Assembly: GCA_046597605.1 (NCBI GenBank)
Contig: JBKJKE010000237.1
Span: forward strand, 22,490-86,489
Length of the DNA stretch: 64,000 nt
Direction: 5' to 3'
Origin: Limisphaerales bacterium
GTDB lineage: Bacteria; Verrucomicrobiota; Verrucomicrobiia; Limisphaerales; JACDHS01
Numbering within the stretch: the first letter of the stretch is position 1; the number at the start of each line of letters is the position of its first letter. The position numbers and the translations under genes were made by a program. Below are positions 5,480 through 63,190 of this stretch, in pieces. The notes beneath the pieces are model-generated. The model made no database searches. It was not told the origin of the DNA and worked only from the letters and a program-made list of their open reading frames with translations.

Positions 5480-5705
5480 ACTTCCCTGATCGCCTTTTTC
5501 CAATGGAAAACTGCGTTTAAACTTCCCCGATCGCCTTTTTCCAATGGAAAATTGCGTCTAAACTTCCCCAATCGTCTTTTTCCAATGGAAAATTGCGTTT
5601 AAACTTCCCCGATCGTCTTTTTCCAATGGAAAACTGCGTCTAAACTTCCCCGATCGTCCTTTTCCAATGGAAAACTGCGTTCGAACTTCCCCGATCGCCT
5701 TTTTT
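5480..5705. repeat. tandem array A: 5.5 copies of a 41-bp unit (ACTTCCCCGATCGCCTTTTTCCAATGGAAAACTGCGTTTAA)
   Basis: Unit starts counted by hand at 5480, 5521, 5562, 5603, 5644 and 5685 (partial), with 1-4 substitutions per unit. Each unit holds CGATCG and the inverted repeat TTTTCCA-A-TGGAAAA. The array fills the divergent intergenic region between 5389 and 5798. Confidence 0.95.
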
Positions 5706-5797
5706 CTTACGTTGCTGAAACTATTTTTGAAAAGTAGGCGGTTCCCTGATTTGCAAGAGGCAGAAAGGTGTCCAGTCTACCGCCCAAGTATCTAAGT

Positions 5798-7627
5798 ATG
5801 GAGATTGTCATAGTTTTTAGCTTGCTCGTCGTAGCCATTGTTCTGTTTTGGAAAGAGTTATTCTCTGTAGACATTACCACGCTCATCGTCCTGATCGCTC
5901 TGATCGTTTTCAAAATCCTGACACCGGACGAGGCCTTTTCCGGGTTTAGCTCGGACATCATCATTATCCTCGCTTCGATTTTTGTGTTAAGTGGTGCTTT
6001 GCAGAAAACAGGAGTAGTGGATGCCTTGGGAGGCCAATTGCTTCGATTTTCTGGGAAAAGCGAGGGCTGGCTTCTATTTCTCATGATGGCTTTGGTTGCC
6101 GCGGTTTCCGCGTTCATGAATAACACCACGGTAACGGCGCTCTTCGTGGCACCAGTGATGGGCCTCGCCCGGAAAATGAAGATTGGCCCATCCCGGTTGC
6201 TGATGCCACTGGCTTACGCTTCCATTCTCGGTGGCACCTGCACGTTGATTGGAACGTCGACCAATGTGGCGGTAAGCGGCTACGTCAAAACGTTGGGACT
6301 GGAACCAATCGGCCTGTTTGAGATCACTCCCATTGGACTCATCTTTGTGGGAACTGGCATCGCTTACATGATGATAGTCGGTCGGAAACTCGTCCCAGAT
6401 TACCCGGATGAAAGCCTCACGAAAGATTATGCCATACGCGAGTACATCAGTGAAATCATCGTGCTTGCTGATTCCAGCATGCTTGGGCAAAAGGTTTTCG
6501 AATCCGACCTCGCCAAACTGGAATTTCAAATCCTCGCGGTGATTCGCAACCATCAGAAGATGATTCCTGATCGAAATATGAGGGTGGAGAGCGGCGATGT
6601 TCTCCTGGTGAAGGCCCGGGCTGAAGAATTGATGAAGGTAAAGCAGACGGCTGGTATCGAGATCAAACCAGAGCTGAAGTTGGATGATCCCAGCTTGCAG
6701 AGCGAAGATATCAAGATCGCTGAGGTGCTGGTCTCTCCGAATTCAGACCTGATCGGGCGTACATTAAAGGAAGCGAACTTCCGTCAAAAGTACGGTTTGA
6801 CCGCCCTTGCTCTTTACCGACAGGGCCATTCCCTGCGCGACAAAATCAAGTATGTCAGGTTGCGCCTGGGTGATTTGTTACTGGTGCAAGGTCCGCCGGA
6901 ACGGATTGAAACTCTTAAGGGTGGCCGGAATCTGACTCTTTTGGAGGAGATTGAGCCTGGTTTGTATCGTCGCAAGAAAGGACTGGTGGTAGCCGGTTTT
7001 TTTGCTGCCGCCCTCGTCGCCAGTGGCCTGGGATGGCTTCCACTTTCGGTCGCCGTTCTGGCATCGGCGGTGTGTGTTATTCTCACTAAATGCATTCGAA
7101 TCGAAGAGGCTTATGAATTCATCGATTGGCGGCTTTTGATCCTGATTGGTGGAATGACGGCGTTTGGTGTCGCGATGCAAAAAACGGGCGCGGCGGAATG
7201 GATGGCAAACAACATTGTACATATCCTTGGACCTCTCGGGCCAAAGGGCATCATGGCTGGCTTTTTTATGGTTACCATTTTCCTGACCCAGCCCATGTCC
7301 AATGCCGCAGCCGCCCTGGTTGTTTTGCCAGTGGCATTAAGTGCCGCCGCAAAACTGGGCGTAGACCAGCGAAGTTTTGCCATCGCTATCATGCTGGCTG
7401 CTTCGATATCGCTAATCACCCCGTTGGAACCCTCGTGCATCCTGGTCTATGGTCCCGGAAAATATAAGTTCTCTGATTTCGTCAAAACGGGTCTCGGTTT
7501 GACCGTCATCCTGGCGGCAATCATCTACTTTCTTGTCCCGGTTTTCTGGCCGTTTTATCCAGAAAAAAAAGCTCCTGTTAAAGGTGGCGAATCAACGATT
7601 CAAGCCACACCGCTTCCAGCAAAATGA
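5798..7627 (+). CDS. SLC13/DASS-family anion permease with two central TrkA-C (RCK_C) domains
   Basis: Two multi-TM halves flank two TrkA-C-like segments (ISEIIVLADSSMLGQKV and IAEVLVSPNSDLIGRTLKE). I moved the start from the track start 5768 to the ATG at 5798 (MEIVIVFSLL). Confidence 0.85.
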   Translation: MEIVIVFSLLVVAIVLFWKELFSVDITTLIVLIALIVFKILTPDEAFSGFSSDIIIILASIFVLSGALQKTGVVDALGGQLLRFSGKSEGWLLFLMMALVAAVSAFMNNTTVTALFVAPVMGLARKMKIGPSRLLMPLAYASILGGTCTLIGTSTNVAVSGYVKTLGLEPIGLFEITPIGLIFVGTGIAYMMIVGRKLVPDYPDESLTKDYAIREYISEIIVLADSSMLGQKVFESDLAKLEFQILAVIRNHQKMIPDRNMRVESGDVLLVKARAEELMKVKQTAGIEIKPELKLDDPSLQSEDIKIAEVLVSPNSDLIGRTLKEANFRQKYGLTALALYRQGHSLRDKIKYVRLRLGDLLLVQGPPERIETLKGGRNLTLLEEIEPGLYRRKKGLVVAGFFAAALVASGLGWLPLSVAVLASAVCVILTKCIRIEEAYEFIDWRLLILIGGMTAFGVAMQKTGAAEWMANNIVHILGPLGPKGIMAGFFMVTIFLTQPMSNAAAALVVLPVALSAAAKLGVDQRSFAIAIMLAASISLITPLEPSCILVYGPGKYKFSDFVKTGLGLTVILAAIIYFLVPVFWPFYPEKKAPVKGGESTIQATPLPAK

Positions 7628-8154
7628 GTCGTAAACCAACATGCTGGAGTTTGGATGTCAACGCTCCCCTGGATGATGTGTTTGAATGGTGTATTCAGAA
7701 CCATAGTGTTGATCGAATACTGTTGGCGCTTCGAATGCAGCAGGTACATGGCCGGTGGGGCCCACTGGTTCCGGGACTGGATACGAAAGCTAAACAATTG
7801 TTTGGTGCGCACCTCGTCGACTCATTTTTGGCCTCTGCCTGGCCTGCAACGAAACTGATTCAGCATCCGGCCCAAATCATGATCATCGCCTTCAATGCGG
7901 AGACTAAGAGAACAGTCCTTGAAAATGGATCCACGCTATCGGCCTGGCTCCACAATGCTCAATCGCCATTGCCAGAGGACCTTTGTCTGTTTAGTGAAAA
8001 AAGCGCAATGCCGGTCCTTGTCAGTTGCACACATGAACGGGACGCATGGCTCATCACAGACAAAGCCATGACTTTGAGGGGGACAGCCAAGGCTCGGCTT
8101 AAGACTGCCGAATTGACGATCCCACAAACCAAATATTTTTGTAAGCGGTGGTAG
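7624..8154 (+). CDS. hypothetical protein
   Basis: 176 aa. Its start overlaps the stop of the upstream permease (ATGA), which suggests co-translation. No family recognised. Confidence 0.4.
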   Translation: MSRKPTCWSLDVNAPLDDVFEWCIQNHSVDRILLALRMQQVHGRWGPLVPGLDTKAKQLFGAHLVDSFLASAWPATKLIQHPAQIMIIAFNAETKRTVLENGSTLSAWLHNAQSPLPEDLCLFSEKSAMPVLVSCTHERDAWLITDKAMTLRGTAKARLKTAELTIPQTKYFCKRW

Positions 8155-8174
8155 GAGCTCGGACACTTAGCTAA

Positions 8175-9074
8175 TCAGACAGTTTTCGGCAACTCCGCCA
8201 CCGCCCCTCGGCTCAATACACGGGTGACGAAAAATCCAGCGATGCATGCGATCAGAATCCAGACGCTGACCACCTGAGAGAATGTAAGACCTGCAAAATA
8301 GGTTTGTGGACTATCAGCACGAATAAATTCCACGGGAAATCGGACAATCGCGTATCCGATTCCGCAGAACCAGACGATGTCTCCATCGCGTTGTTTCGCT
8401 TTAAACCTTGAGTTCAACCACAGGCACAACCCCAGTGCCAATATGACTTCGTAAATCTGCGTGGGATGCACTGGCAACGATTTCGTTTCTCCGTGAGAGA
8501 GCAAACCGAGTTTATGATGTTGCTCGAACGCTGCAGACTCAGCCGGAAATTGAACCGCAAATGGCATATTCGCGGAAGACACCGAGGGGACTGTTTGCAC
8601 CTGCAATTGTTTTACCGGTGAAAGCGCGCTCAAAGTCTGCGGAGTTGCACAGACGTCTCCCCAGCAGCAACCCGACATAAAGCAGCCCACCCGCCCAAAC
8701 GCCAGGCCAAGTGCCAACGAGGGTGCCATGATATCCAACAGCCTGGGGGTTGAAATTTTTCGGACCTTCGCATAGATGATCACTGTGAGAAATCCAGCAA
8801 TTGCTCCTCCGTAGAACACCAGTCCCCCGCCCTCCCAGAGTTTAAGTGTCTCCCAAAACCCAAGAGGCTTTGGAGAGTAGAACATCCGACTGCATAAGCG
8901 TGCTCCGGCCGGACCGATAACCATCAGAAGTAAGACCAGGTTATCGATATGCCGTGGGGAAAGACCGGACTTTTTGGCGCGCCACCGAGCGAGGAGGAAT
9001 CCCCCGATGAAGCCAAGCAGGAGCATCGCTCGATAAGAGCCAATGTAAGGTTCCGCCCAAAGATATGGATGCAT
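8175..9074 (-). CDS. lgt: phosphatidylglycerol-prolipoprotein diacylglyceryl transferase
   Basis: 299-aa polytopic membrane protein with HPTQIYE and GRVGCFMSGCCWG boxes characteristic of Lgt. Confidence 0.9.
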   Translation of the reverse strand: MHPYLWAEPYIGSYRAMLLLGFIGGFLLARWRAKKSGLSPRHIDNLVLLLMVIGPAGARLCSRMFYSPKPLGFWETLKLWEGGGLVFYGGAIAGFLTVIIYAKVRKISTPRLLDIMAPSLALGLAFGRVGCFMSGCCWGDVCATPQTLSALSPVKQLQVQTVPSVSSANMPFAVQFPAESAAFEQHHKLGLLSHGETKSLPVHPTQIYEVILALGLCLWLNSRFKAKQRDGDIVWFCGIGYAIVRFPVEFIRADSPQTYFAGLTFSQVVSVWILIACIAGFFVTRVLSRGAVAELPKTV

Positions 9075-9108
9075 GATGTTTTACACCGAATCGGCAGTGC
9101 GCAACGCT

Positions 9109-9525
9109 TTAGACGCCAAATGGCCCGAGTAATGAACGATCCTTGCCCGGTACCGGCAGCCGGCTCGCCATCCGCAATCGCGCACCAATTTGCTTCGCGG
9201 TCGCGATCATTTCCGTTGCGCAGTCTGCAGGAAGCCAGATCTTGCAGTTATGTTCCCATAACCCAAGCCACGCCTGAAAGTGTTCTTCTTTCAACGAGAG
9301 CGGCACGTGTCGCATTGCCATTGCTCCATTATAGAGAGAAGGCCCGCCCGTCACCGTTGACCAGAAATTTGCGATCTTCTCCAAATGCTCCGGCCAATTC
9401 TCGATCTGCTCATTGAACACCGGCCCAATCAACTGATGTTGCTGCACATCAATATAAAAGTGTCGCAGCAACTCCATTAACTTTGTGCGTCCGCCAATTC
9501 GATCAAACAGAGTCTGCTCAGTCAT
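9109..9525 (-). CDS. truncated-hemoglobin-like globin (group III type)
   Basis: 138 aa with LFDRIGG...FY...NWPEHLEKIANFW...GGPSLYNG...HFQAWLGLW. The pattern matches my memory of Ctb-like group III truncated globins. Confidence 0.65.
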   Translation of the reverse strand: MTEQTLFDRIGGRTKLMELLRHFYIDVQQHQLIGPVFNEQIENWPEHLEKIANFWSTVTGGPSLYNGAMAMRHVPLSLKEEHFQAWLGLWEHNCKIWLPADCATEMIATAKQIGARLRMASRLPVPGKDRSLLGPFGV

Positions 9526-9597
9526 ATATAATCTCGTCCAGCCGTACTCATGCGGATTGAACTACCGGTAAATACCTTATTCGGGGAAGCCGAACGA

Positions 9598-11067: not shown

Positions 11068-11069
11068 GG

Positions 11070-14000
11070 CTATTGCTTTGTAACTACTTCGTCGAGGTTC
11101 AGGATGACGCTCGCCACGGTGGTGTAGGCGGCAAGTTCTGAGGAATTCAATGCGGCGTTGGGCTTGGAGTCACCCAGAGTGAGGAATTTCGTAGCCGCAC
11201 TTTCGTCGCCTTTGAATTCAGCAAGGCGCCGTTCCAAGCCAGCTTTCAGGACCGTTATTTCCGCCTCTTTAGGTTTGCGGGCGGTTGCCAGCAGGAAGCC
11301 ATGAGCTATGCGCTGCTCAATCGAGGATCCGCCCTCCACCAACATGCGTTGCGCCAGCGCCCGGGCTGCTTCCACGTAAGTCACATCATTCAACAATGCC
11401 AAAGCCTGCAATGGCGTTGAAGTTCTCGAGCGCGACACCGTGCAAATCTCACGGGTTGGCGCATCAAAGGTCGACATCGCCGGCGGGGACACGGTTCGTT
11501 TCCAGAAGGTATAAAGGCTGCGCCGGTATAAATCTTCCCCCGTCCCCTGCTTGTAAGTGGCGAACCCGGTTCCCTCCGGTCCTGCCGCAAGCTCCTCCCA
11601 CAAACCGGTCGGCTGGTATGGTTTTACGGCAGGTCCACCCATCTTCTCCGAAAGCAAACCGGAAAGGGACAGCGCCTGGTCGCGAATCATCTCCGCGCCC
11701 AGCCGCAACCGCGGCCCGCGTGTCATCAGGATGTTCCCGGGATCACGTTCCAACAACTCGGGGGAAACACGTGAGGACTGACGATAGCTGGCGCTCATCA
11801 CGATCAGTTTCTGCATCGCTTTCATGTCCCAACCGCTCCGCATGAATTCTGTTGCCAGCCAATCGAGCAATTCCGGATCAGTCGGCTGATCCCCTTGCAA
11901 CCCAAAGTTCTCAATGGACTTCACCAGCCCGTTGCCGAAGTAAGCGGCCCAAAAGCGATTCATCGTGACACGTGCCGTGAGCGGATTTTCCGGCGAGACG
12001 AGCCAGCGAGCCAGACCAAGACGATTGGTGGGCGCGTCTGATGGAAGCTGCGGCAAGATTGCGGGGACAGCCGGAAAAACACGCTCCCCGGGTTGATCGT
12101 AAGCTCCCCGGACAAGAATGAAGGCCGGCCTCACTTCTCCCTCCTGTTCCTGCATCACCATGGTGGAGGGAATATCTTCGTCGACGTTTTTGCGCTCACC
12201 ATTGAGCTGCGCCATCTCCTCCGAGAGGCGTTGATATTCCGGCTGATAGGACAGAAAATATTCCCGAGCCATCTTCACATCTGCCTCGGTTCGCTTCGGC
12301 ACCGGTTTGTTTCTGAAGATTCTGGCTAATAGTGGGTTAAGCGTCGGGTGCTCGTCGTCGGTGACGGTCAGCCGGAATTTTCCAATCTGAGTCTTGCCGG
12401 GGTTGTTCTGGGTCAGCTTGAATTTTAGAGCCGCCCCTTTCGGCAAAGTGAATGGCGACTTCACTTCAAAAAACGCGGTGGTTGCCTCGCCGTTGGTTGA
12501 CACCGCGCTCCATCCGCCAATCCCGTTCGAACGTGGAGATAAGAGGAGCGATGCTTTGAAACCGGCCAGTTCGCTGCTGGCGTTTACCTTTCGAAATTCA
12601 ACCGGCTTACTGCTTCCGTCCGGGTTCGTAAGTTCCACCGAAAAGGAGTGCAAAACAAACTTTCCATCCGCACTTCGGCCCAGCTGATTACTGCTCCCGG
12701 TAATCGGCAATACATCCAGCCGAATTCCAGTTATGTTGGTCACTTCGGTCTGCCCCACAACCACGTAAGTATCTGTCTCGGCGATATCTCCTTCCGCCAC
12801 GATCGAAGCATCTTCCAGGCTCCTCAGAGTTGGCTTCCCACTCTCCGCTTTGAACTCACTTAGCTTCAGTGTGCTCCAAACTGGCTCGTTGGTAAGAACT
12901 TGTTTCTCCCAGTCGTTCTGCTGTCCCTTCAATACGGTGACCAACTCATCCATCTTTTTCTGTTTCGTCCCTATCTTCGTGTCGAGGACCGCCAGTTTTG
13001 CATCGAGCTCCGGAACCGGGAGTTTCAGGGTCGGTTTCGTGCTGACCACATTATTGCGTTGCACGTTTGAGCGATCCACTGCCCGCTCAGCAATGTTGTT
13101 GAAGAACGCAAACATGCTGTAGAAATCTTTGGCGGTGAGCGGATCGTATTTATGATCGTGACAGCGCGCGCAGCCCAGGGTCAGCCCGAGCCAGACCGTG
13201 GCCGTCGTATCAACACGATCGATGACCTGTTCGGCGAAGAATTCTTCGGCAATGCTTCCCGCTTCCATGTTGATCCGTTGATTTCGATGGAAACCGGTCG
13301 CGATTTTTTGGTCCAACGTCGGAGTGGGTAAAAGGTCTCCGGCGATTTGTTCAATGGTGAACTCATCGAATTTTTTATTCTCGTTGAACGCTTGGACGAC
13401 CCAGTCCCGCCATGGCCACATAACCCGTTCGCGATCTACCTGGTAACCATGTGTATCGGAGTAACGTGCGAGGTCGAGCCAATCGACTGCCATGCGCTCG
13501 CCATAACGCGGCGAAGCCAGCAAACGATCGACCACCCGTTCGTAGGCATTGGGTGACGTATCTTCCTGAAACGCCTGGAGTTCCGACGGGGTCGGAGGCA
13601 ACCCCGTGACATCCAGGGTAACGCGTCGCAGGAGCGTCGCTTTGTCTGCTTCCCGTGAAGGTTTCAATCCTTCCGTTTCCAGGCGGGACAAGATGAAATG
13701 ATCAATCCCATTACGGGTCCACCCTTTGGCCTTTACCTGGGGAAGTTCTGGATGCCGGGGTTTTTGAAAGGCCCAATGTTCTTCCCATTTAGCCCCCTGC
13801 CCTATCCATTTCTTGAGGGTTTCCTTTTGCGCGACCGTCGGTTGCCGGGGGTAATCCGGAGGGGGCATCTGCTCATCGGGATCTGTTGAAAAAATTCGCT
13901 TAACGATTTCGCTCTCGTCCGGTTTACCCGGCACTATCGGGAATCTACCCTTCCGCTCTGCGAAAATGCCTTCCCTGGTATCAAAGCGCATCTTCGCTTT

Positions 14001-14256: not shown

Positions 14257-15741
14257 TCAACTGAAAATCAAAAAACAAAGGACCGCGATTACCGTCGGAG
14301 CCAGTGCTCCCAAAAAAAGCTTCACAGGCGAGACTCCATCTGGAAAAAACTTGGACAAGATAGATTGCCCGGCGGGGTTTGGTGCATTGGCTATGACCGT
14401 CAATCCTCCACCGGCCAGAGCTCCCGCCATGACAGCGTATTTCAGCTCCGGACTGAAACTCGGCACTAACGACGCGAGATAGGTAATGGCCGCATTGTCA
14501 TTGAAACCGGTCAACACGGTCGCTCCCAGCAGGAGCGGAATCTTGTCGAGCCTGCTCAGAACTGGTTCAAGCCACCACCCCTGTAAACCTCCATGCACCA
14601 CCAGCCCCGCAAGGAAGAAGCCGACCATCAATGGCTGGCGCAGACGCAGCTCATTCTGGTGATGCTCCGTTGCTTCGCTGAACGCCAGGTAAAACAAGAA
14701 TCCACCAATGAAAAAACTGGGGTAATGACTATTCAGAACGGTCCAGGCAAGAAACACGATGTGGACCGCCGTGATCCAGAATGGAATCGGGTCATTGCGG
14801 TTCTCCCGAATATCCGCCGCATCACCATCCGAAGTAACGGCGGGCAACATGCGCGCAAATTCCTTACGAAAAATAAAGTAATAGAGACAATTGGAGGTGA
14901 CGATTGCCAGGACCGCTTTCCAGCCGAAAGTTGTGAGCATATGAGCCGTTCCCCATCCCCACTTCCCTGCCACCATCAGAACGGGAGGCGCGGCAAAGTT
15001 GGTCAGGACTCCCCCAATGGAAACGTTCACGAAAAGTAAACCGAGGGTGGCATAGGCGAAGGTTGCACTTGGCTTGCGGTCATAAAACTTTTGCCCGAGC
15101 AGGATTGCACCAATCGTCATGGCAGCCGGTTCCGTGATGAATGAACCAAGAACAGGAGCAACCGTTAGGATCGATAGCCACCATGCCGCCGCTGATTGCT
15201 TTCCAATTCGTGCGACACCCGACATCAGTTGTTCAGCAAACCGGAGAATCGGTCGGCTGGCGGCAATCGCCATGATAACGACCACGAACAACGGTTCCGT
15301 GAAATTTAATCCAGAGTGGAAATAATGTTTGGCGCTCGACCATCCTTTCGAAATCGTAATCGCAATCAATAAAGGAATAATCCAAATGCCGAAAATTGCC
15401 TCGACCTCGCCCAGGAAATGAAAAACCTGTGCCCGGAATGACACTTCATCCGAGCCATTGGTCCGTTCCCTGTGTTCCGCCTCGTAACGATGGGATAGTT
15501 TTGTAAAAAACGGCGCGAGAAATGTGTGCAGGATCGCGAGGATGAAAATGACAGTAGCAACAAGGTTGAACGGTTCTTCCTGAAACCGACTCGTCAATAC
15601 CGTGACGATGGATGGGCTATTAGTTACCGCATACTCCGAAAGAGGACGAGGGAAGTGGGCACCGGCAGCAGGCTCAGACGCCAGACAGGATATCCCTGCC
15701 GTGAAACAGGTTGCCAGGATCGGTGCTAAAAATCGTCTCAT
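14257..15741 (-). CDS. polytopic membrane transporter, DUF1504-like putative Na+/H+ antiporter
   Basis: About 494 aa from M30 of the tracked ORF (MRRFLAPILATC). More than 10 predicted TM helices. The HFLGEVEAIFGIW segment resembles my memory of the Na_H_antiport_2 family. The function is not secure. Confidence 0.5.
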   Translation of the reverse strand: MRRFLAPILATCFTAGISCLASEPAAGAHFPRPLSEYAVTNSPSIVTVLTSRFQEEPFNLVATVIFILAILHTFLAPFFTKLSHRYEAEHRERTNGSDEVSFRAQVFHFLGEVEAIFGIWIIPLLIAITISKGWSSAKHYFHSGLNFTEPLFVVVIMAIAASRPILRFAEQLMSGVARIGKQSAAAWWLSILTVAPVLGSFITEPAAMTIGAILLGQKFYDRKPSATFAYATLGLLFVNVSIGGVLTNFAAPPVLMVAGKWGWGTAHMLTTFGWKAVLAIVTSNCLYYFIFRKEFARMLPAVTSDGDAADIRENRNDPIPFWITAVHIVFLAWTVLNSHYPSFFIGGFLFYLAFSEATEHHQNELRLRQPLMVGFFLAGLVVHGGLQGWWLEPVLSRLDKIPLLLGATVLTGFNDNAAITYLASLVPSFSPELKYAVMAGALAGGGLTVIANAPNPAGQSILSKFFPDGVSPVKLFLGALAPTVIAVLCFLIFS

Positions 15742-16085
15742 TTGATCGCGCAATGAAGCACGTGCCAGACTCTTTGTAGAAGCGGTGCGGATTTGCTCCC
15801 GACCGGGGCCTACCAAGGGAAATGACACGCATCATTGCATTTCTGCAATTCAATCGCTGAATGGCGGCCCGACCATTCAAAAACCTCCAGGCACACACGC
15901 ACCTGAACCCTTTTTTCGTTCGGCGGCAAGCTAGCCTCGCAGCGGCTGAAAATAAACAAAAAATGTCCTGAAGGCGAAGCAAACGTCCTGGCCACCCAAC
16001 AGTATGGGATCAGAAACGCTGGCCAAACGGCGCAAATCCCGGCTAGACACTTCTCCTAAAAACCGGCATAACCATATGCATAAGC

Positions 16086-19378: not shown

Positions 19379-19382
19379 CGTT

Positions 19383-22033: not shown

Positions 22034-22672
22034 ATGAAACGTTTTACGCGCGGATTTACGCTGGTTGAACTCCTGGTTGTCATTGCCATTATCGCCATCC
22101 TGGCGGGAATGCTGTTGCCTGCCCTGGGGCGAGCCAGGGAAAAGGCGTGGTCTGCCAACTGTCTCAGCAATCTCCGTCAGATCGGGATCGCCAGCCGTTT
22201 GTATGCAGACGATAACGACGATTCGCTGCCTCGTTCGGCCCACCAGGGACAATCCTGGGTAGCCCGATTGCAACCGTATGCTGGCGGCACGAACCTATGG
22301 CGTTGTCCCCGGGACACCAACAAGACACGACGCTACAGCTTCGCGATCAACGACTTCCTTTTGCCGGAACAGAATGGAACCGGAGGCACGGACTTTTCGC
22401 GAACTACTCGAGTGCCTTCTCCTACCGACACGTTTTTCATGGCGGAGTGCAGCGATACCTACGCCAACAACGATCACTTTCACTTCGCAGATCCAGATGA
22501 TGGGGATTATTCGCCCGCTGGATTCACTGGAAGCATTGCCGTAAACCGGCATCAAAACGGAGCCAATTACCTGTTCGTCGCTGGCAACGTGCAATTCCTG
22601 AAATGGAACCTTCTCCAGACGGACTTAAACCGAAAGGGATCACGCTTTGTGAATCCCGTCGGAAAACCTTAA
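22034..22672 (+). CDS. DUF1559 / prepilin-type N-terminal cleavage-methylation domain protein
   Basis: [31 protein letters not shown], plus a C-terminal [17 protein letters not shown] that is a variant of the H-X9-DG box. I moved the start to the ATG at 22034. Confidence 0.85.
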
Positions 22673-24157: not shown

Positions 24158-24354
24158 TTCCTCCGTTTAAGACCGCCGGTTGTAAATACATCCGATGAGG
24201 GAAACGGATCCATCCACGGATCCTTTCCCTGACAGTGCCGTCCAACGGCGTCCTCGCTCCCTCTCTCTAACGTTCCTTCGTTTCAAACCTGGTGCCTCCT
24301 CTGGAGATTCAAAAATGGCCTTTTTCCTCGTTTTTTCCCGTGCAAGCACCTGTA

Positions 24355-24546
24355 ACGCAGGTTTCATGTGCTCGCGGGATCCGCAACGACCGGAAACGTA
24401 GGTTTCATGTGCTCGCGGGATCCGCAGCGACCTGAAACGCAGGTTTCACGTGCTCGCGGGATCCGCAACGACCGGAAACGCAGGTTTCATGTGCTCGCGG
24501 GATCCGCGACGACCGGAAACGCAGGTTTCACGTGCTCGCGGGACCT
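24355..24546. repeat. tandem array B: about 4.6 copies of a 41-bp unit (ACGCAGGTTTCATGTGCTCGCGGGATCCGCAACGACCGGAA)
   Basis: Unit starts at 24355, 24396, 24437, 24478 and 24519 (decaying). Each unit carries GCGG-GAT-CCGC (with GGATCC inside). The array lies between convergent gene ends (24157 and 24623). Confidence 0.95.
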
Positions 24547-24622: not shown

Positions 24623-25540
24623 TCACCTCGATTTTAAAAACCGCTTCAATTCCGGCAGCGTCGGGACTCCTGCTTGCGCTCCCAGTCGTGTTGCTTGAAG
24701 TGCGGCCGCGACCGTGGCGGTTTGAATACGTTCAAGGGAAGGCAACCCTTGCGAAAGGGCCCAGGCGTAAGCTCCGTGAAAGACATCGCCGCAGCCCGTG
24801 GTGTCCAGCACTTCGACCTTGTAGATGGGTTGATGCCGGATCTTCCCAGGTTCGGCCGCGTCAATAAACCAGCATCCCTCTGTTCCGAAAGTTACCGCAA
24901 GAAATGTGTGCTGCCGACTCCAAAGCTTGCGAAGCACCTTCTCCGGTTCCGTTTCACCACTTAATTGCAGCGCCAGTTTGCGTGGAAGAATCAGGTGGTC
25001 GATGAGCCCGAGCAGTTCTTCAAATTCCGGGCCCGAGTTCCGTTCCAAATCCGCAACCACTGGAATCCCAACTTTCCGCGCAATCTTCGCGACCCGAATC
25101 ATTGCCTTAAGATCGGAATGATCCACGTAAAGGACACGTGTGGCGGCGATCAATTCCCGAGGAGGCCAGTTGACTGGCATTCGGTAAGGAATTGCCCGGT
25201 GGGAAAAGACATTCCGGGTGTGTTGGGAGGAATCCACCACGATGAAGGAATGAACCGGGGGATTATTTTCACGACGATGCAGATGACGGAGATTTATTTT
25301 CTCTTTTTCCAATTCTCGAATCGCATAGAGGGAAAGATCATCGCGACCGAGGACCCCGGCGTAGGCGACCTTCCCTCCAAGACGAGCAGCGGCCAGCAAG
25401 GCAATCGCCGTCAAACCGCCCAACTGACGTTCACATTGCTGCACCCGAACTTTTGCATCCGCCACCGGATAGTTTTCCACGACGATGGAGTCGTCCACCG
25501 AAACCGTCCCGATACCAAGAACATCAAACAGCTTTCTCAT
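24623..25540 (-). CDS. PfkB-family carbohydrate kinase
   Basis: 305 aa with a ribokinase-like fold and the C-terminal DTTGCGDVFHGAY anion-hole motif. Confidence 0.8.
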   Translation of the reverse strand: MRKLFDVLGIGTVSVDDSIVVENYPVADAKVRVQQCERQLGGLTAIALLAAARLGGKVAYAGVLGRDDLSLYAIRELEKEKINLRHLHRRENNPPVHSFIVVDSSQHTRNVFSHRAIPYRMPVNWPPRELIAATRVLYVDHSDLKAMIRVAKIARKVGIPVVADLERNSGPEFEELLGLIDHLILPRKLALQLSGETEPEKVLRKLWSRQHTFLAVTFGTEGCWFIDAAEPGKIRHQPIYKVEVLDTTGCGDVFHGAYAWALSQGLPSLERIQTATVAAALQATRLGAQAGVPTLPELKRFLKSR

Positions 25541-37534: not shown

Positions 37535-37873
37535 AACACCGCATAAGTGTGCGAAACCAGCCTGAGGTGACAATGTGAAGATCCAAACACCATCTTTCTG
37601 ACCCGGTTCCAGGTGAATGAAACCGCATTCGATCCTGCAGATAAAGAAAAACCAGTGTCTGCGCTCCATCGTGTGGACACCTCCGCCAAGGCCTCCTTTT
37701 TGACGTCTCGCAGATGCTCTACTCCGTGTCAGAACCGTCTCCAAAACCTTAATCATAAGTAATCCACTCGTCTTACCTATGAAACCAGATCTGGAGCGCG
37801 TAAGTTGCGTCCAATAAGCCACTTACAACTACAGCAACCCCATATTTGCGGTCGTTTCCCCGGGGGGGACGGT

Positions 37874-38201
37874 CGTAAATATATTTTTACGCCCCCCGCC
37901 CCGTGGGAAATGACCGTAAATATATTTTTGTCGTCGTCGCCCGCGGGGGAAAGGACGTAAAAATATATTTACGACCTTTTCCCGCGGGGTGGACATCGTA
38001 AAAATATATTTACGTACTCCGCCCCAGGGGGAACGAGCGTAAAAACGTTTTTGCCTACTCCGCCCCGGGGGCGAAGACCGTAAAAATATATTTGCGATGT
38101 TTTCCCCGCGGGCGAAGACGATAAAAACGTTTTTACGACCGCCGCCCCGCGGGAAATGAGCGTAAAAATATTTTTATGCTCTTCGCCCCAGTTGAAAAAT
38201 G
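37874..38201. repeat. tandem array C: 8 diverged copies of a 41-bp unit (CGTAAAAATATATTTACG + N5-7 + CCCCGCGGGG-like + N)
   Basis: Unit starts at 37874, 37915, 37956, 37997, 38038, 38079, about 38120 and 38161. The two palindromic modules are conserved while the linkers diverge. Confidence 0.9.
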
Positions 38202-46563: not shown

Positions 46564-46751
46564 GCATACTCTTTTTCGCCTTCAAAAGGGATTCCACGTA
46601 GTGGTCTTTCCAGATTTGGTGTCTTCGCGGATCCCGCAAGCACGTCATCTCCCGGTTTCGGCGCTTTGCAACCAGCGGAGATTTCAATCAATCCATCCGC
46701 AGGCAATTTCCATTCTCCGAGAGAAACAAAAGTGCTGGTCGAATTCTTTAA

Positions 46752-54674: not shown

Positions 54675-54683
54675 GCCGACTGA

Positions 54684-55313: not shown

Positions 55314-55574
55314 AATTGCGCCTTGTCGTAACAGAATGGAAGCAAAGCGCCATTAAAAACTGCTTTGGCGTCCGACCCTAATCGGGGCGTTGTGGTGCCG
55401 CGGGATCCTCGAAGGGGCACTATTTTTAAACCGAATTCTTTCTGGGATTGCCAAAAATAATTCCGTACAGCGCAAATGGAAGACCCTTTCGCAGAGGATG
55501 CCGCGATGCATGATTTGTTTTTGGGAAGCATGGAGTGATCCACAATCCAGTCATCAACACTGCCCTTATCCGTG

Positions 55575-55740
55575 CTATTTCAGTTAGTTGGGCGTTCAGG
55601 GCCAACGGCCCGCTTTATACCAGCCTGGGTCGGAGCGATAGCGCAGGCCCAGGAACATGTCGCCTCGGTAATTCCAAGCGCTGAAGGCGCGGTCTATTTC
55701 ATTCGCACGCGTCGGGGGCATTGCTTTAGCCTTGCCAAAA
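55575..55740. repeat. short interspersed noncoding element of a type common in PVC genomes (candidate)
   Basis: It translates to ...SGPTARFIPAWVGAIAQAQE...PSAEGAVYF, which resembles the spurious SPGQ..IPAQGNALG..ALKGR peptides I remember from many PVC genomes. It contains several 5-6-bp hairpins (GGGCC-AAC-GGCCC, CCTGGG...CCCAGG). Confidence 0.35.
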
Positions 55741-55951
55741 AACAAAGTCAAAGCTGCGATCCCGGCAAAACATTGGAGAACAGTAACTATCTATGCCGCA
55801 ATCATTGAGTCTTGTTATCAAGTGTCCAAAGAAGCAGGAAGAAAACCGCAAACTATTTGCCGATACCCATGACGCAGGGTATCAGGAGACCCGCCATCAA
55901 CAAGATTTGATGAACACCGCTCCAAACAAAGTCCATCCCCTAGAAGACCGA

Positions 55952-57382: not shown

Positions 57383-57584
57383 TGGGTCAAATTCAGATCG
57401 TTGGTTCGGGAGATGGGACGTTTTTAAAGGGTAAAAGGTTTCTGCGCAAAGATTACACCTTGCAGAACAGGTGTGCTGTTGTTTGCGGTTCAATAAAAGG
57501 CAGGAATCAATTTCGATAAACAAACAGGACTGTCCGGAACGACATTCGCCAAGATCCCAAGGGCTTAGACCTGTTATAGTCCGG

Positions 57585-57735
57585 GTTTGAATTCCTCAAC
57601 CCCAAGGGGGTTGCGCAACAAAGCCAAGGGTTGCTCGGCAAGAGCTACCCTGAGTACGATGCAATCAAATTGGCCAACCCCAAAGCGGGTTGCGTCAAGT
57701 CTTCGTTGCGGAATCCATTTGGGATTAGACACCGC
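57585..57735. repeat. short interspersed noncoding element with two AACCCC-loop-GGGTT hairpins (candidate)
   Basis: AACCCCAAGGGGGTTGCG and AACCCCAAAGCGGGTTGCG lie about 78 nt apart. The minus strand translates to LRVALAEQPLALLRNPLGV, which resembles the PRVA..SQPWA..RNPFGI pseudo-peptides I remember as recurrent in PVC genomes. Confidence 0.4.
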
Positions 57736-57745
57736 GCTTTCCCGT

Positions 57746-58729: not shown

Positions 58730-58904
58730 GCACCGAAAATGTCTTGAGGAGCTGGAAAGTTAAAGCAGAAAACAACCGAGGCAACACGATGACCTCGCTA
58801 CGTTTAAAAGACCTGAATGGCCCCATGGTCCCCAGGCTCTCAAATGAAAGAGCCGCCCGGTTGCCCCGAGCGGCTTTGTGTTTTCTCATGCGATCGTTCA
58901 GCGT

Positions 58905-59846
58905 TTATGCCGTCACCACAACTACCACTTCACTCCGCGCACTTTCCCCACCGTTATTCACGGCCGAGATGGATACCTCCACCTGAGAAGCCGCCGGCAT
59001 GGTCTCGATCATGTAGTCGAGATCCGTCGGACTTCCCACCGGTATCGCTTCGTCGTCCACACCGATCACCTTCAACCAGACACGATAATACTCCGCCCGT
59101 GCCGACTTCGCCCATTTCACTGCAGCTTTCCCTCCCGCCTGCAGGACAATAGTGATCTTCCCTGGACGCTCCGGCGCCTGTTTGAGCCCCGGTTGATTCA
59201 ACCCAAACGCATCCCAGCGCCCATCGATCGGTCCGACCACCCGTTTGAGTTCCTCCACCACTCCGCGGATACGGCTACGCAACACTTTCTCTTTCTGTTT
59301 GCGTGCTGCGAGCAGTGTCCGAACTGCCCCGCGTTTCACCGTCACCGCCTCCTTGGCCGTGGAAAGCGCGGTGAGGGCAGCTTCCACAAGCGCCGCTGTC
59401 GCGACATCTTCCACTTCGTGCTGCGGGTTGGACGTGTAAAACGCCTTTAACGACCGCAACAGTTCTTCCAGGCGAGCGACCGATTTCGGAACGACGAGTG
59501 TGCTCGTGAATCCCGTGCCTTCCCATCGCACGTTGTAACTGCGTCCGAAGGAACGTTTGAGTGAATCGCGAACCACGAAGGCGATGTCATAGGCGTCCGT
59601 TTGTTTGAGGGTCAACGCGGTCCGCAACCCGCGCAGATCGTGTTTCCCCTGGAGAAGCGAAGCCGTTCCGTTGGTGACACCCAGGACATCGGCATCGACT
59701 AACGGTTTGGTGGCGACCACCAACCCGAGACCGGCGGCATGGGCTGCTGCTCCGGAACTAACGAGGTTTCCGGCTGCGACGAGACTGGCGACTGTTTTAT
59801 ATGGTTTCTGCTGCACTGTTTTCCTTTTCTGTCCGACGTCCGCCAC
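58905..59846 (-). CDS. hypothetical protein with a C-terminal fibronectin type III-like domain
   Basis: 313 aa. The C-terminus AEYYRVWLKVIGVDDE...VSISAVNNGGESARS is FN3-like. The N-terminal two thirds are helical with no family recognised. Confidence 0.5.
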   Translation of the reverse strand: MADVGQKRKTVQQKPYKTVASLVAAGNLVSSGAAAHAAGLGLVVATKPLVDADVLGVTNGTASLLQGKHDLRGLRTALTLKQTDAYDIAFVVRDSLKRSFGRSYNVRWEGTGFTSTLVVPKSVARLEELLRSLKAFYTSNPQHEVEDVATAALVEAALTALSTAKEAVTVKRGAVRTLLAARKQKEKVLRSRIRGVVEELKRVVGPIDGRWDAFGLNQPGLKQAPERPGKITIVLQAGGKAAVKWAKSARAEYYRVWLKVIGVDDEAIPVGSPTDLDYMIETMPAASQVEVSISAVNNGGESARSEVVVVVTA

Positions 59847-60255
59847 ACTTTTTTGATGTGACAGAAGGTGTTTTTTTGTTGTGACACCTGCGAATCATTC
59901 GCTCAATTTCGAACTGGGAAGTTTATGCCATATCGACGGGTGGTCGCATAAGGCCAATCATTGGTATCAATCGCTGGCCTCCCCCCTGCACCGTTGTTAA
60001 CCCCTTGATCTTCAGGACTTTAAAAATGTGAAAAAAAAGTGATTTATGAGCGATTTTCCCAAAGTTGGCAGACGCCAAAGCGGGGTAAATGACACGAATC
60101 CTGAGGGAGAAGTTGAAACCTGCCCGTTTCTATTCGTGTTTTCTTGTGTTCATTCGTGGTTAACGGCTTTAAATGCGTGAAATTTCTGTTGAACCGTCTA
60201 AAACCGACCGGTGCAACAAATAGATCTGGCGAACAACAGGGATTATCAACGGGCA

Positions 60256-60846
<591 letters not shown>

Positions 60847-60885
60847 TCAGCAAGGGAACTCTGCTGATGTTCTCTCCAGAAAGAC

Positions 60886-61086
60886 TCATTTCGATTTAGT
60901 GCGATAAGGGGAAGGCTTTTCCTGGAGTGTGCCTTCAGGACCAGAAGGAACCGAACCACCACGGATAGCGAGTTCACGTTCGCGCATGGCATCGAGCATG
61001 CGCAGTTTTTCCACCAACGGCAGGGCGGCGAGATTGCGGCGCATGGCGCGTTTGCTTTCGAGAATTTTTTCGAGGTCGAAACTCAT
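60886..61086 (-). CDS. hypothetical small protein (second gene of a two-gene module)
   Basis: 66 aa (MSFDLEKILESKRAMRRNLAALPLVEKLRMLDAMRERE...). Its start overlaps the stop of the upstream gene by 4 nt (ATGA). Confidence 0.4.
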   Translation of the reverse strand: MSFDLEKILESKRAMRRNLAALPLVEKLRMLDAMRERELAIRGGSVPSGPEGTLQEKPSPYRTKSK

Positions 61087-61616
61087 GGCGTGTCGCTGAG
61101 GAATTGTCGTTCAAACTTCTGCCAGGCGTCAACAAGTCGATGCCGGGCTATGATCTGTTGAAAGCGTGCCGCATCAAGTGCGCCAGCCTCAATAAACTGA
61201 AGCAAGCGGGCCTTGTCCTTGGCCCGTCCGGTTTGCAGGGCAATCGCGGCCAGGTGTTCCGCGGTGAAAACATGAGCGGTTGTGCCACCTATGTCCCGCG
61301 TGACAGCATCTTTCAGTGCTTCTTCCAGGAGCGCAGTTTCAGCAGGAAGAAACTGCAGGGGCCACCCGCAGACGACAATGTATTCGCCCTGCATTTCACC
61401 GCCCTGCGCTTGCAGGTAATCGAAAATAGGTTGCGGACTTACCAACAAACTTCCCAGCTCAGGGCGGAACGTCACGAAAATATCCACATCCAGCGTGGCC
61501 ATCGGTTCAAGATAAAACGTTGCGCCGACCGCTCCACCAATGGCGTAACGATCAATCACGCCGTCGGCTTGCATCTGGTTGATAGTGTTGATGGCTTCCT
61601 TGATATCCATACTCAA
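61083..61616 (-). CDS. putative minimal nucleotidyltransferase-fold protein
   Basis: 177 aa. YAIGGAVGATFYLEPMATLDVDIFV fits the G-[GS]-x(9-16)-D-x-D pattern of pol-beta-type NTases. It starts 5 nt after the stop of the hsdR-tail reading frame. Confidence 0.45.
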   Translation of the reverse strand: MSMDIKEAINTINQMQADGVIDRYAIGGAVGATFYLEPMATLDVDIFVTFRPELGSLLVSPQPIFDYLQAQGGEMQGEYIVVCGWPLQFLPAETALLEEALKDAVTRDIGGTTAHVFTAEHLAAIALQTGRAKDKARLLQFIEAGALDAARFQQIIARHRLVDAWQKFERQFLSDTP

Positions 61617-61621
61617 AATAT

Positions 61622-61810
61622 CTAAGCGGCCAGAACTTCGTTCAACTCATCCAATAACTTTGGCAGTTGCTCACCAAACAGTTGATGAGCTTTACCCAGG
61701 CCGCCGCGTTGGCTGAAGGGGGCGTATTCGAAATCTTCGGGTTCGATGCGTCCCGGCTCTTTTTGCTTATTGAGTAACTTACGGGAATCGGCTTTCCCTG
61801 GGAAGCGGAT
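61622..61810 (-). pseudogene. hsdR: type I restriction enzyme R subunit, extreme C-terminal tail (EcoEI-R-C-like), in a different frame from the tracked ORF
   Basis: My own translation of the minus strand after REP copy 3 gives ...KADSRKLLNKQKEPGRIEPEDFEYAPFSQRGGLGKAHQLFGEQLPKLLDELNEVLAA followed by a stop (61622-61624). This matches my memory of the conserved HsdR C-terminal motif PF..GGLGKA..LFG..L..LLDELN..LAA. Confidence 0.6.
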
Positions 61811-61834
61811 AAGCGGCGGGACGCCGCTTCTACT
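61811..61834 (-). repeat. REP-like element copy 3 (AGTAGAAGCGGCGTCCCGCCGCTT)
   Basis: Same 24-mer with one substitution in the 2-nt spacer between GTAG and the stem. It forms the 3' boundary of the RAYT-like fragment. Confidence 0.85.
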
Positions 61835-62341
61835 TTAAGAATCTCCTTTGCGGTAAAACTTTTCCATGAATGCAAAATCTCGCTGAGAAGATGACCGTTG
61901 GTCGGGGTCACCAAAACGTGGACGTGGTTTTTAGCGACGACGAATTCATCTAACGAATAGCGTTCGCCTTTGAAAAATTTCAGTGCTTTCTCAACCAATT
62001 CTTTGACGGGTTCGATGCCCAGAATGCAAGATCCGTAACCAGCATCCAGCCACCTTTGGATCCGGGCTGGAAACCGATCGTAAAATTCCTGGCGTGTTGT
62101 TTCGTCATGAGGTTCGGGATGAGCTTCCAACCAATCCTCCATCTCTGCACGCCAGCGTTGCAACTTTTCCTGCGAGAGTGAATCGGCCAACCGGAAGGTC
62201 ACGAAGTATGTCACCCCATCCTGGCGCCAATGAGGCAAGTTGCCGGTCAAATGTCCTACGGGAGCTTCGGGATCAAAATAGTTGATTAAGGACGGAGTAA
62301 AGTCGTCGGGAGCGGTGGGGTCGTTTAGACGGTCCAGGAGA
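61835..62341 (-). mobile_element. RAYT-like / IS200-type HUH (Y1) transposase fragment, lacking the catalytic-tyrosine C-terminus
   Basis: GNLPHWRQDGVTYFVTFRLADSL...VVAKNHVHVLVTP (HUH = HVHVL)...HSWKSFTAKEI. The homology stops about 10-15 aa before the expected WQ..Y.DR tyrosine motif, exactly at REP copy 3. Confidence 0.7.
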
Positions 62342-62365
62342 AAGCGGCGGGACGCCGCTTCTACT
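62342..62365 (-). repeat. REP-like element copy 4
   Basis: Identical to copy 3. It forms the 5' boundary of the RAYT-like fragment. Confidence 0.85.
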
Positions 62366-62616
62366 TCATCGGGATCGCAGGCGCGCAGGAGCGCACCGGC
62401 TAATGATGCAACCGATTGGCCATCGGCAACGGCGGCGATCTGTTGGCGTTGCGTGGTGTCGAGTTCGCGGTCGAGCCGGGCAAGGCGTGCGGCTAGGGTC
62501 GTGAGGGTGTCCTCATCGCGGCCAGCGGTAAAGAGGACGCGTTGCAACAATGTTTTCAACGGCACGCTTTTTTGGCGATTGAGCGGGCGGGATTCAGTTT
62601 TGTTTCGGTCAGGCAT
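62366..62616 (-). pseudogene. hsdR: probable HsdR helical-region fragment
   Basis: LTTLAARLARLDRELDTTQRQQIAAVADGQSVASLAGALLRACDPD resembles a segment I remember from the C-terminal third of type I R subunits. The helicase and nuclease parts are absent. Confidence 0.4.
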
Positions 62617-62862
62617 CGCGATCCCGTGGATGTTTATCTTTATAGGTAAATACCTGATACGCAGGCAAGAAGATTGGAAAGATAAACGGCAAATGGTGTA
62701 GTGCGCTTTTGGAGGTGCTCTCAGGTTGGGAGCGAGGCGGAGATTCGAAACTGCAAAAACCGCCGACCAGGCGCAACCGGAAGAGGGAATCCGACAAGTC
62801 TTCCAATCTGCGATTCAGAGCACCATTTCCACGCTCATTTCGGAATGTATTCCGAGGTGCTG

Positions 62863-63190
62863 AGAAAATTATCTGCCGTCAAAAACAGATTGGCGAGGTG
62901 CCGGGAAAATTTTCTCACTACTCCGCCAGATTGGAAAAGTGCTCAGATAATTTTCTCACGTCTCGGCCAGATTGGCAGAGTAGCCAGATAATTTTCTCAC
63001 GCCTCGGCAAGATTGGCGGAGTAGCCAGATAATTTTCTCACGTCCCGACAAGATTGGCGGAGTAGCCAGATAATTTTCTCGCGTCCCGGCAAGATTGGCG
63101 GAGTAGTCAGATAATTTTCTCGCGTCCCGGCAAGACTGGCAGAGTAGTGAGATAATTATCTCGCGTCCCGGCAAATCTGTCGGAGACGTG
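62863..63190. repeat. tandem array D: 8 copies of a 41-bp unit (AGATAATTTTCTCACGTCCCGGCAAGATTGGCGGAGTAGCC)
   Basis: Unit starts at 62863, 62904, 62945, 62986, 63027, 63068, 63109 and 63150. The first two units are about 65-70 percent identical to the consensus and the rest more than 85 percent. Each unit holds GTAG plus an AT-rich imperfect palindrome, which is perfect (GAGATAATTATCTC) in the last unit. Confidence 0.9.

Follow-up and report, generated by a model that had tools for sequence, protein, structure and literature searches.

Why should tandem repeats of largely unrelated sequence all have exactly the same length? The question is raised by a 64,000-nt stretch of DNA from a Limisphaerales bacterium (Verrucomicrobiota; GenBank assembly GCA_046597605.1, contig JBKJKE010000237.1, forward-strand positions 22,490 to 86,489), referred to below as the window, in which a sequence-only reading had picked out four noncoding tandem arrays, here termed A to D, with a strict period of 41 nt. 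Here, we describe these arrays, together with four more from related genomes, as real, lineage-specific, non-coding palindromic minisatellites, and take their common period as a sign that something in these cells measures or constrains DNA length, a factor that is apparently undescribed.

A strict 41-bp period in four arrays

Tandem Repeats Finder and an independent autocorrelation scan (lags 6-300) were run over the whole window. The former returned four strong tandem arrays, each of period 41, and the lag scan picked out the same four regions only, with signal at lag 41 and its multiples; neither method found any further strong array in the window. As delimited by Tandem Repeats Finder, array A (5466-5704) has 5.8 copies with 90% matches and no indels, array B (24354-24543, the element reaching to 24558) 4.6-5 units with 93% matches, array C (37859/37874-38189, the element occupying 37842-38189) 7.7 copies, or about eight units, with 70% matches, and array D (62908-63174) 6.5 copies with 91% matches. 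The array ends are degenerate on both sides, and with one such unit at each end array D spans about 62867-63194.

None of the four arrays contains an indel, and slicing at 41 bp leaves every unit in register. The eight units of array C are only 65-70% identical pairwise, yet their MAFFT alignment is gap-free and each is exactly 41 bp long, which rules out compensated indels. The strict spacing that had been counted by hand is therefore confirmed and survives computational alignment; the proposed unit starts were correct for A, B and C, while the phase given for D was 4 nt off, though its period was right. A three-unit higher-order repeat, suggested by Tandem Repeats Finder rows at period 123, is given no weight, being weak in C (0.70 vs 0.65-0.67) and absent in G, one of the arrays from relatives described below. 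That the arrays are noncoding also stands: the 41-bp period is not divisible by 3, and stop codons interrupt every one of the six frames of array A, which rules out a coding repeat, and no open reading frame (ORF) of at least 100 aa crosses A, B or C. A 107-aa ORF (62709-63032, plus strand) overlaps the first D units and is taken to be spurious.

The same period in related genomes

Relatives were picked via homologues of the DUF7133/cytochrome c gene beside array A, which in the two relatives with arrays is 62-70% identical; the nearest is only 70-71% identical, so that the lineage is poorly sampled. The clade DNA read amounts to about 120 kb from three related genomes, namely the window and about 56 kb from two relatives. 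Array E (unit GGCTTTCTGACGTCAGAAAGGTCAAAATTTCCGGAGATTTC; 5.6 copies, with a unit length of exactly 41 bp) lies on the contigs of the 70% homologue, which stem from a Logan run and two NCBI assemblies, and is identical in all three assemblies. These contigs also carry array F (about seven units), whose spacings of 41, 41, 41, 42, 41 and 43 bp and individual units of 40-43 bp make it clear that indels do occur. A partly syntenic European Nucleotide Archive contig with the 62% homologue carries arrays G (ACCTTGTACCGGTACAAGGTCCCATTCCCGCGCGATTTTGG; 6.1 copies) and H (CTCGTTCGATCGAACGAGCATTTTTGAAGGCTTTAAAATTA; 6.0 copies), both of period 41. The array-bearing genomes are the window's own metagenome-assembled genome (MAG), GCA_013820875.1, GCA_020064125.1 and the ERZ27336832 bin that holds NODE_921. 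Leaving aside one CRISPR array, the clade DNA contains eight arrays, about one per 15 kb, all of this period (F alternating between 41 and 42).

As controls we used 2.06 Mb of DNA, made up of 80 LepA loci from GTDB species (about 17 of them Verrucomicrobiota), 80 metagenome loci with 21-62% identical homologues of a phosphoesterase of the window, and several other loci. Period 41 occurred there in none of 16 arrays found by Tandem Repeats Finder and none of 21 found by autocorrelation, the periods running from 12 to 156. Taking from these controls a probability of at most about 0.045 for a period of 41, the three further matches in the window have p ~1e-4, and the seven further matches over the eight arrays p ~4e-10. 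The excess at 41 is thus positive over about 120 kb of three genomes, and the proposal that period is conserved while sequence is not holds beyond the window, in four more arrays of two relatives. Neither method found arrays with the 71% (5.8 kb), 63% (16 kb) or 59% (20 kb) identical DUF7133 homologues, or in the four closest LepA loci (52 kb, 79-87% identity), a few loci from which the phylogenetic limit of the arrays can be sketched. Other lineages have palindrome-containing intergenic arrays of other periods (L016 8309-8491 and L055 15985-16211), seen in an Akkermansia-labelled MAG (33 bp x 5.5) and a Pyrinomonadaceae MAG (39 bp x 5.8, 95% identity).

Copy numbers rest on assemblies, and 41 is also a plausible k-mer size, which brings up an artefact such as a loop tied to the k-mer size of the assembler, or else plain chance. 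Neither deserves serious credence. Units within an array differ by substitutions in ordered patterns, and the period appears in the window contig, in k-mer-based Logan contigs, in SPAdes-style 'NODE' contigs and in two NCBI assemblies, array E being the same in three of them; chance has to contend with the probabilities just given. Logan contigs of run SRR31159418, which encode proteins identical to those of the window, stop 1 to 1.5 units into the arrays, L165 after 1.4 units of A, L084 within B, and L001 in the first degenerate unit of D. Judged by its length, L084 would end within C as well. Breaks of this kind, at the start of near-identical repeats, are the behaviour expected of a k-mer assembler where such repeats are real, and with several assemblers in agreement the arrays come through the check for artefacts as genuine.

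Sequence relations between arrays

The four units had been described as sharing no obvious similarity, which is true of most pairs but not of all. Units cannot be aligned across arrays, and most pairs score at shuffle level; A and the reverse complement of B, however, have in common GAAA[A/C]CTGCGTTT, 12/13 positions, a match reached by 0/300 shuffles, and C matches the reverse complement of D in part, at 20/41 positions (p about 0.07). Each family is confined to a single locus within the clade DNA, bar one solitary B-like unit (GTCTTCGCGGATCCCGCAAGCACGTCATCTCCCGGTTTCGG; 46620-46660, minus strand) in a separate intergenic region, which is about 70% identical to one reverse-complemented B unit and of marginal significance alone. 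Outside the window, an intergenic GATCGCTTTTTTCCATGA some 5.8 kb to its left (L165, about 11358-11385) resembles the GATCGCCTTTTTCCAATGG core of array A and may be a solitary fragment of that array or a chance match.

Such traces could be the residue of common descent with concerted evolution, in which one dispersed ancestral 41-bp satellite had its loci homogenised apart and its length was simply inherited, with no present cause. Satellite families are homogeneous within arrays and divergent between them, as is the case here, and the 12/13 word of A and B, the match of C and D, which also have the same layout, and the solitary B-like unit can all be read in this way. We nevertheless find this origin doubtful. 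Similarity is at shuffle level for most pairs and yet the length is exact in seven of the eight arrays, so that a constraint on length would be needed even under common descent; indels do arise, as the 40-43-bp units of F attest; the uneven conservation of palindromes and linkers (see below) is not neutral; and relatives that look closer, by the roughly 52 kb of LepA loci at 79-87% identity, are without arrays.

Anatomy of the repeat unit

Palindromes are found in every unit. The consensus of A (AAAACTGCGTTTAAACTTCCCCGATCGCCTTTTTCCAATGG) contains TTTTCCAATGGAAAA, GTTTAAAC and CGATCG, and that of B (AACGCAGGTTTCATGTGCTCGCGGGATCCGCAACGACCGGA) the dyads GAAAC-GCAG-GTTTC and CGCGGGATCCGCG, centred 20.5 bp from each other; the unit of C combines an 18-bp AT-rich palindrome, CGTAAAAATATTTTTACG, with a GC-rich CCCCGCGGGG-like dyad, also 20.5 bp from centre to centre, and a symmetric half-unit continues the array leftward to 37842; the consensus of D (AATTTTCTCACGTCCCGGCAAGATTGGCGGAGTAGCCAGAT) has the dyads AGATAATTTTCT/GAGATAATTATCTC and CCGGCAAGATTGGCGG, their centres 20 bp apart. 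Among the palindromes named by the sequence-only reading, TTTTCCAATGGAAAA, CGATCG, GCGGGATCCGC and CGTAAAAATATTTTTACG are present, but CCCCGCGGGG is confined to some C units, and GAGATAATTATCTC is perfect in one D unit, the others reading AGATAATTTTCT. The main palindrome is 18-20 bp long and, in the consensus, perfect through its centre in C, E, G and H (CGTAAAAATATTTTTACG, CTTTCTGACGTCAGAAAG, ACCTTGTACCGGTACAAGGT and CTCGTTCGATCGAACGAG, respectively), and shorter, 8-15 bp, in A, B, D and F. A genome-wide richness in palindromes is ruled out as the source, with 25 observed outside the arrays against 19 expected.

In B, C, D, E and H, 20-21 bp separate the two best dyad centres, and in the four more diverged arrays, C, E, G and H, 28-32 of the 41 positions of the whole unit (30 in C) agree with its own reverse complement (p <= 0.0025). 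These are not separate facts but one property, because a dyad repeated by translation over a length L yields a second dyad at L/2, which gives the mature unit the form X + rc(X), rc denoting the reverse complement. Within arrays, units vary less in the palindrome than in the linkers, at 12% vs 38% in C (p = 8e-6), 4% vs 43% in E (p = 6.5e-7), 4% vs 18% in G (p = 0.003) and 0% vs 9% in D (p = 0.03). Linker length is invariant although linker sequence varies, and the period is kept at 41 bp where units have diverged by at least 30%. Changes at the palindrome centres are symmetric too: all of five internal double substitutions of the central dinucleotide are self-complementary (TA to CG twice in C, CG to GC and GC to CG in G, AT to GC in H), for which chance would give 1/3 and p is about 0.004, in a small sample. 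In the AT/GC signal summed over the eight units, the 10.25-bp harmonic is enriched (p = 0.002, uncorrected).

Single strands of five of the arrays fold better than shuffles (z = -7.9 for E, -9.3 for H, -4.9 for G, -3.1 for C and -2.6 for A), but those of B (-0.25), D (-1.0) and F (-1.0) do not, so that hairpin potential is not the feature common to all arrays; the period is. Palindromes perfect through the centre, symmetric central changes and the poor folding of B, D and F together amount to the signature of a double-stranded rather than a hairpin element. Conserved dyads, freely drifting linkers, exact spacing, perfect centres and a helical periodicity of composition match the textbook signature of duplex sites for oligomeric, dyad-symmetric proteins, and it is this reading that we favour.

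Genomic setting

The window is a stretch of ordinary chromosome from a member of the Verrucomicrobiota, and so of the Planctomycetes-Verrucomicrobia-Chlamydiae (PVC) bacteria, with genes for LepA (best match among species representatives 87% identical), Lgt, isocitrate dehydrogenase, sulfatases and PVC-type DUF1501, PSD1 and DUF7133 proteins; around LepA, not even the closest species representatives retain synteny. A set of 38 window proteins was scanned against Pfam, and all four arrays turn out to be intergenic and flanked by genes with clear Pfam domains. Array A fills most of the intergenic space between two divergent genes, one for the DUF7133/cytochrome c protein (2840-5389, minus) and one for a CitMHS transporter (5768-7627, plus), whereas array B lies between convergent genes for a 194-aa hypothetical protein (plus) and a PfkB kinase (24623-25540, minus), the arrangement seen also for G and H. 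Arrays C and D are each between genes of the same strand, C being 3' of an FGE-sulfatase gene and 5' of a gene for a sigma-like factor of the extracytoplasmic function type (ECF-sigma-like). Since the arrays occur in promoter, terminator and tandem intergenic settings alike, no common regulatory role is apparent.

The position of B, G and H, between convergent genes, is typical of stabilisers and terminators of the repetitive extragenic palindromic (REP) kind, and one may ask whether the arrays act as RNA, as transcribed strings of hairpins that would, for instance, stabilise mRNAs, serve as bidirectional terminators or insulators, or be precursors of small RNAs. The strong folding potential of C, E, G and H would agree with this, as would the weak terminator-like and promoter-like matches of D units. 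We judge a role of this kind highly improbable, given that A lies between divergent promoters, that B, D and F fold like shuffles, that the palindromes are self-complementary through the would-be loop and change symmetrically there, neither of which an RNA hairpin needs, and that a role as RNA would not explain why unrelated sequences have a fixed length of 41 nt. No array has an Rfam match at the gathering threshold, the only hit at E <= 1 being to a meaningless miRNA model (25 bits vs 150). Arrays of promoters or terminators were considered separately and rejected, A, B and C having no more such matches than shuffles and D only weak ones (9/12).

Elsewhere in the window, the same kind of search gave an nhaA-I RNA (RF03057; 15859-15910, minus; 52 bits vs a gathering score of 37) directly upstream of a Na+/H+ antiporter gene (14257-15828), an ordinary, well-placed riboswitch-type element, and a sub-threshold match to the Acido-Lenti-1 small RNA (55598-55653, minus; 26.7 bits vs 37, E = 0.055) that covers the full length of the model and lies upstream of PhoU-like and PHO4 phosphate transporter genes. 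No tRNA or transfer-messenger RNA was found in the window.

Turnover of arrays and a possible length-measuring enzyme

Array F has about seven units in contig L168 and one in L167, although the adjoining 10.2 kb are 99.93% identical; the lone unit differs from every unit of the array, so that a simple collapse during assembly is unlikely. Identity between units declines with distance in A, D and E, neighbours being most alike, as predicted by whole-unit slippage or unequal exchange. Array A has no counterpart at the orthologous DUF7133 upstream regions of relatives, and this absence, with the seven units against one of F, means that arrays turn over faster than the lineage diverges, new ones keeping the same period. 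Several details of the array ends may be recorded here. The left flank of F (L168 13-168 vs L167 8474-8628) is 96.8% identical, compared with 99.93% for the 10.2 kb on the right, and array F may mark a recombination boundary or a locally fast-evolving spot. Array G opens with one inverted unit (L170 3300-3345), so that the first full palindrome is enclosed in a longer one of about 62 bp, and F closes with an inverted copy of its unit start, AAAAGAGTTTTAAAAC (L168 410-440); these switches of orientation may be a clue to how arrays form.

An enzyme that works as a ruler would account directly for arrays that are young relative to the clade. It might be a lineage-specific integrase, transposase or nuclease that cuts 41 bp apart, or a hairpin-recognising HUH/Y1 protein of the RayT kind that mobilises 41-nt single-stranded units, which insert again beside themselves; in either case, new arrays would be born at 41 bp from arbitrary sequence and die before indels accumulate. 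Duplications of fixed stagger, such as target-site duplications and the duplication of CRISPR repeats, have the same length with arbitrary sequence, and the arrays fit that signature; C, E, G and H form strong single-strand hairpins (z = -3 to -9), there is the one solitary B-like unit, and array D is placed upstream of a truncated RayT-like gene, at a distance of 250 bp, the gene belonging to a family that is very large in PVC bacteria. We consider such an enzyme rather unlikely all the same. We know of none with a 41-bp stagger, and the only transposase-like gene in about 120 kb is this one, which lacks its catalytic C-terminus and is flanked by REPs of its own; the array units carry no GTAG or CGTC tag at a fixed offset; their families are essentially single-locus, unlike mobile REPs; loopless palindromes and the poor folding of B, D and F speak against recognition of hairpins; and birth by an enzyme would leave the conservation of palindromes amid drifting linkers unexplained.

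The RayT-like gene (IS200-type Y1/HUH; 61642-62616, minus) keeps the HUH motif, but the match to its homologues stops at a REP, and their C-terminal region (VWQKESFDHIVRS...YIR), the presumed place of the catalytic tyrosine, has no match in the window. Four copies of the GTAG REP, GTAG-AAGCGGC-GTCCC-GCCGCTT (GTAGAAGCGGCGTCCCGCCGCTT), lie on the minus strand at 60655-60675, 60796-60816, 61810-61830 and 62341-62361, and their sequence has nothing in common with the arrays. The idea that the arrays are classical REPs of this neighbouring gene was rejected, the gene being truncated and having its own, different REP; none of the other seven arrays has a RayT-like gene nearby. The closest homologues of the gene are C-terminal parts of type I HsdR genes, with no arrays in their vicinity. 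Two of the REP copies fall within the RayT-like ORF and encode EAASRR, a peptide that recurs twice in distant homologues and thus represents either REPs inserted in frame at conserved positions or a true motif of the protein. The closest homologues (52-57% identical; L002 10001-11629, L003 3423-5018) are fusions of EcoEI_R_C and RayT-like parts that directly follow the helicase part of type I restriction HsdR genes, an unusual nuclease fusion.

Comparison with known repeat systems

The nearest analogy suggested at the outset was with REPs and the bacterial interspersed mosaic elements (BIMEs) that they form. The anatomy is indeed similar, in that these are short extragenic palindromes, sometimes in tandem, and array D adjoins a RayT-like gene, but the GTAG REPs of the window itself are different in sequence and, on anatomy, another system is closer. 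REPs are high-copy and dispersed, with a terminal GTAG or CGTC tag, an unpaired loop and variable spacing or alternating orientation, whereas the 41-bp arrays are single-locus, palindromic through the centre and strictly periodic; no tetranucleotide of the tag type recurs at a fixed offset from the main palindrome across A to H, and the clade DNA holds no dispersed copies of the families beyond the B-like unit described above. REPs are known in PVC bacteria, and so is their tandem reiteration, but with added flank of variable length (PMC3733652).

The closer system is sopC, the centromere (type Ia partition site) of the F plasmid, in which 43-bp repeats stand 12 in tandem and a dimeric protein, SopB, binds the 16-bp inverted repeat contained in each (PMC3177203). 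With its direct repeats of about four helical turns and its short inverted repeat, sopC is the best anatomical match to any single array. It is, however, one sequence family beside sopAB on a plasmid, and here there are many unrelated families, four of them in 64 kb of chromosome. A plasmid centromere or iteron array was rejected on context: the anatomy is right, but the surroundings are chromosomal housekeeping genes (LepA, Lgt, isocitrate dehydrogenase), and the Pfam scan of window proteins found no par, sop or rep genes near the arrays. Array DNA has no matches in plasmids or phages and the proteins none in viral contigs, which rules out a plasmid, phage or viral origin. As regards an integron attC array, no integrase turned up in the Pfam scans of window proteins, no search with an attC model being made.

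As had been supposed, the arrays are not CRISPR. They are without unique spacers, the variable parts being homologous between units and whole 41-bp units alike within arrays (70-93%, or 65-70% pairwise in C), and the Pfam scan found no Cas domains among the 38 window proteins scanned. A superficial likeness exists, in that C, E and G alternate a conserved block of 18-20 bp with a more variable one of 21-23 bp, but 18 + 23 bp is smaller than known repeat and spacer sizes. The real CRISPR array in relative L168 (10815-13839), with a 29-bp repeat CGGACCATCCCCACGTGTGTGGGGAGAAC, a 61-bp period and adjoining cas2 and cas1 genes, is easily told apart from the 41-bp arrays; the ORFs called across it (189 and 237 aa) are spurious.

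By their head-to-tail arrangement, non-coding character and copy-number change between near-identical assemblies (seven units against one in F), the arrays belong with minisatellites, or variable number tandem repeats (VNTRs). VNTRs of the mycobacterial interspersed repetitive unit (MIRU) type are likewise intergenic, tens of base pairs long and polymorphic in copy number. In bacterial VNTRs such as MIRU, however, period and sequence family go together, and here the period is shared without the sequence. Eukaryotic satellites do combine unrelated sequences with a preferred monomer length, concerted evolution and fast changes in copy number, the length usually being ascribed to a chromatin particle; unlike them, the present arrays are bacterial, tiny (5-8 units) and intergenic, and no chromatin particle is known to us whose footprint is 41 bp. 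Among the operators of oligomeric regulators, ARG boxes, which are 18-bp palindromes with a centre-to-centre distance of about 21 bp, resemble the arrays in having palindromes of that size whose dyad axes, separated by two helical turns, lie on the same face of the DNA. Operators of this kind consist of one or two boxes of one consensus near a promoter, in contrast to 5-8 units of many sequences in any intergenic context. A recent survey has found tandem repeats enriched in prokaryotic intergenic regions (PMC12418385), and a full-text search of the literature gave no report of comparable bacterial arrays.

A duplex-geometry model for the period

The explanation that we favour, tentatively, is that the arrays are minisatellites amplified in place whose period is held by a double-strand geometry of four turns, most simply by an oligomeric, dyad-symmetric protein bound in register. 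Slipped-strand mispairing or unequal exchange, helped by the palindromes, would give rise to arrays and let them grow where they are, and fold-back pairing would homogenise each unit against its own reverse complement, so that arrays mature towards X + rc(X). The 41-bp period would be imposed on the geometry of the duplex, the unit corresponding to four helical turns with a dyad axis every two. Its simplest cause would be a putative DNA-binding protein of this lineage, abundant, dyad-symmetric and oligomerising, either of nucleoid type or a paralogous family of one common geometry, which would bind arrays in register such that only in-register arrays are stabilised or further expanded. It might work as SopB does on the 43-bp sopC repeats, or as the size of the nucleosome sets the monomer length of eukaryotic satellites.

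A shared structural constraint had been one of the two options offered by the sequence-only reading, and it receives indirect support from conserved palindromes, fixed linker length, two-fold symmetry and the 10.25-bp periodicity, although no binding protein was found. Its more specific form, a single dimeric binder with helical phasing, fares less well, and the same points weigh against the model just outlined. The palindromes differ between arrays, so one sequence-specific dimer cannot read them all, and a shape-reading protein or many paralogues must be assumed. Pure phasing would also allow periods of about 21, 31 or 52 bp, none of which is seen. Two arrays, A and F, have no two-fold symmetry, H shows no difference between palindrome and linkers (16% vs 17%), and the 10.25-bp harmonic is carried mainly by four arrays (A, D, E and G) and might merely follow from palindromes in which GC centres are flanked by AT arms. 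Among the genes beside the arrays no candidate binding protein was found, nor any homologue common to them, hypotheticals included; a conserved neighbour gene was considered as the binder and dropped, the hypotheticals beside arrays not being homologous to each other. To this may be added the variety of contexts already noted, with no common role apparent, and a small sample, about 120 kb from three genomes.

Stated more broadly, the lineage may possess a molecular ruler, either an abundant, dyad-symmetric protein of chromatin type whose footprint is 41 bp (2 x 20.5 bp) or a recombinase or nuclease able to measure that length, a proposal that we put forward with some reserve. With like caution we suggest that this ruler would create arrays from arbitrary local sequence, or selectively stabilise them, and would drive their two-fold symmetry.

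Implications

Whatever holds the period, arrays that occur about once in 15 kb interrupt the short-read assemblies of these organisms, which may explain why close relatives are poorly represented in databases, and they can be mistaken for CRISPR. As they lie in promoter and terminator regions and near-identical strains can differ in their copy number, the arrays are candidate sources of rapid variation in regulation. A repeat length common to unrelated sequences is how nucleosome-sized satellites point to the structure of eukaryotic chromatin, and if the 41-bp lock is protein-based, the arrays would be bait for a new nucleoid-associated protein or length-measuring enzyme. What appears to be new here is the period lock in bacterial palindromic minisatellites, and a new length-measuring or chromatin-like factor behind it is a real possibility; if such a ruler exists, bacteria would have a parallel to nucleosome-phased satellite DNA, and a single genome might contain hundreds of arrays.

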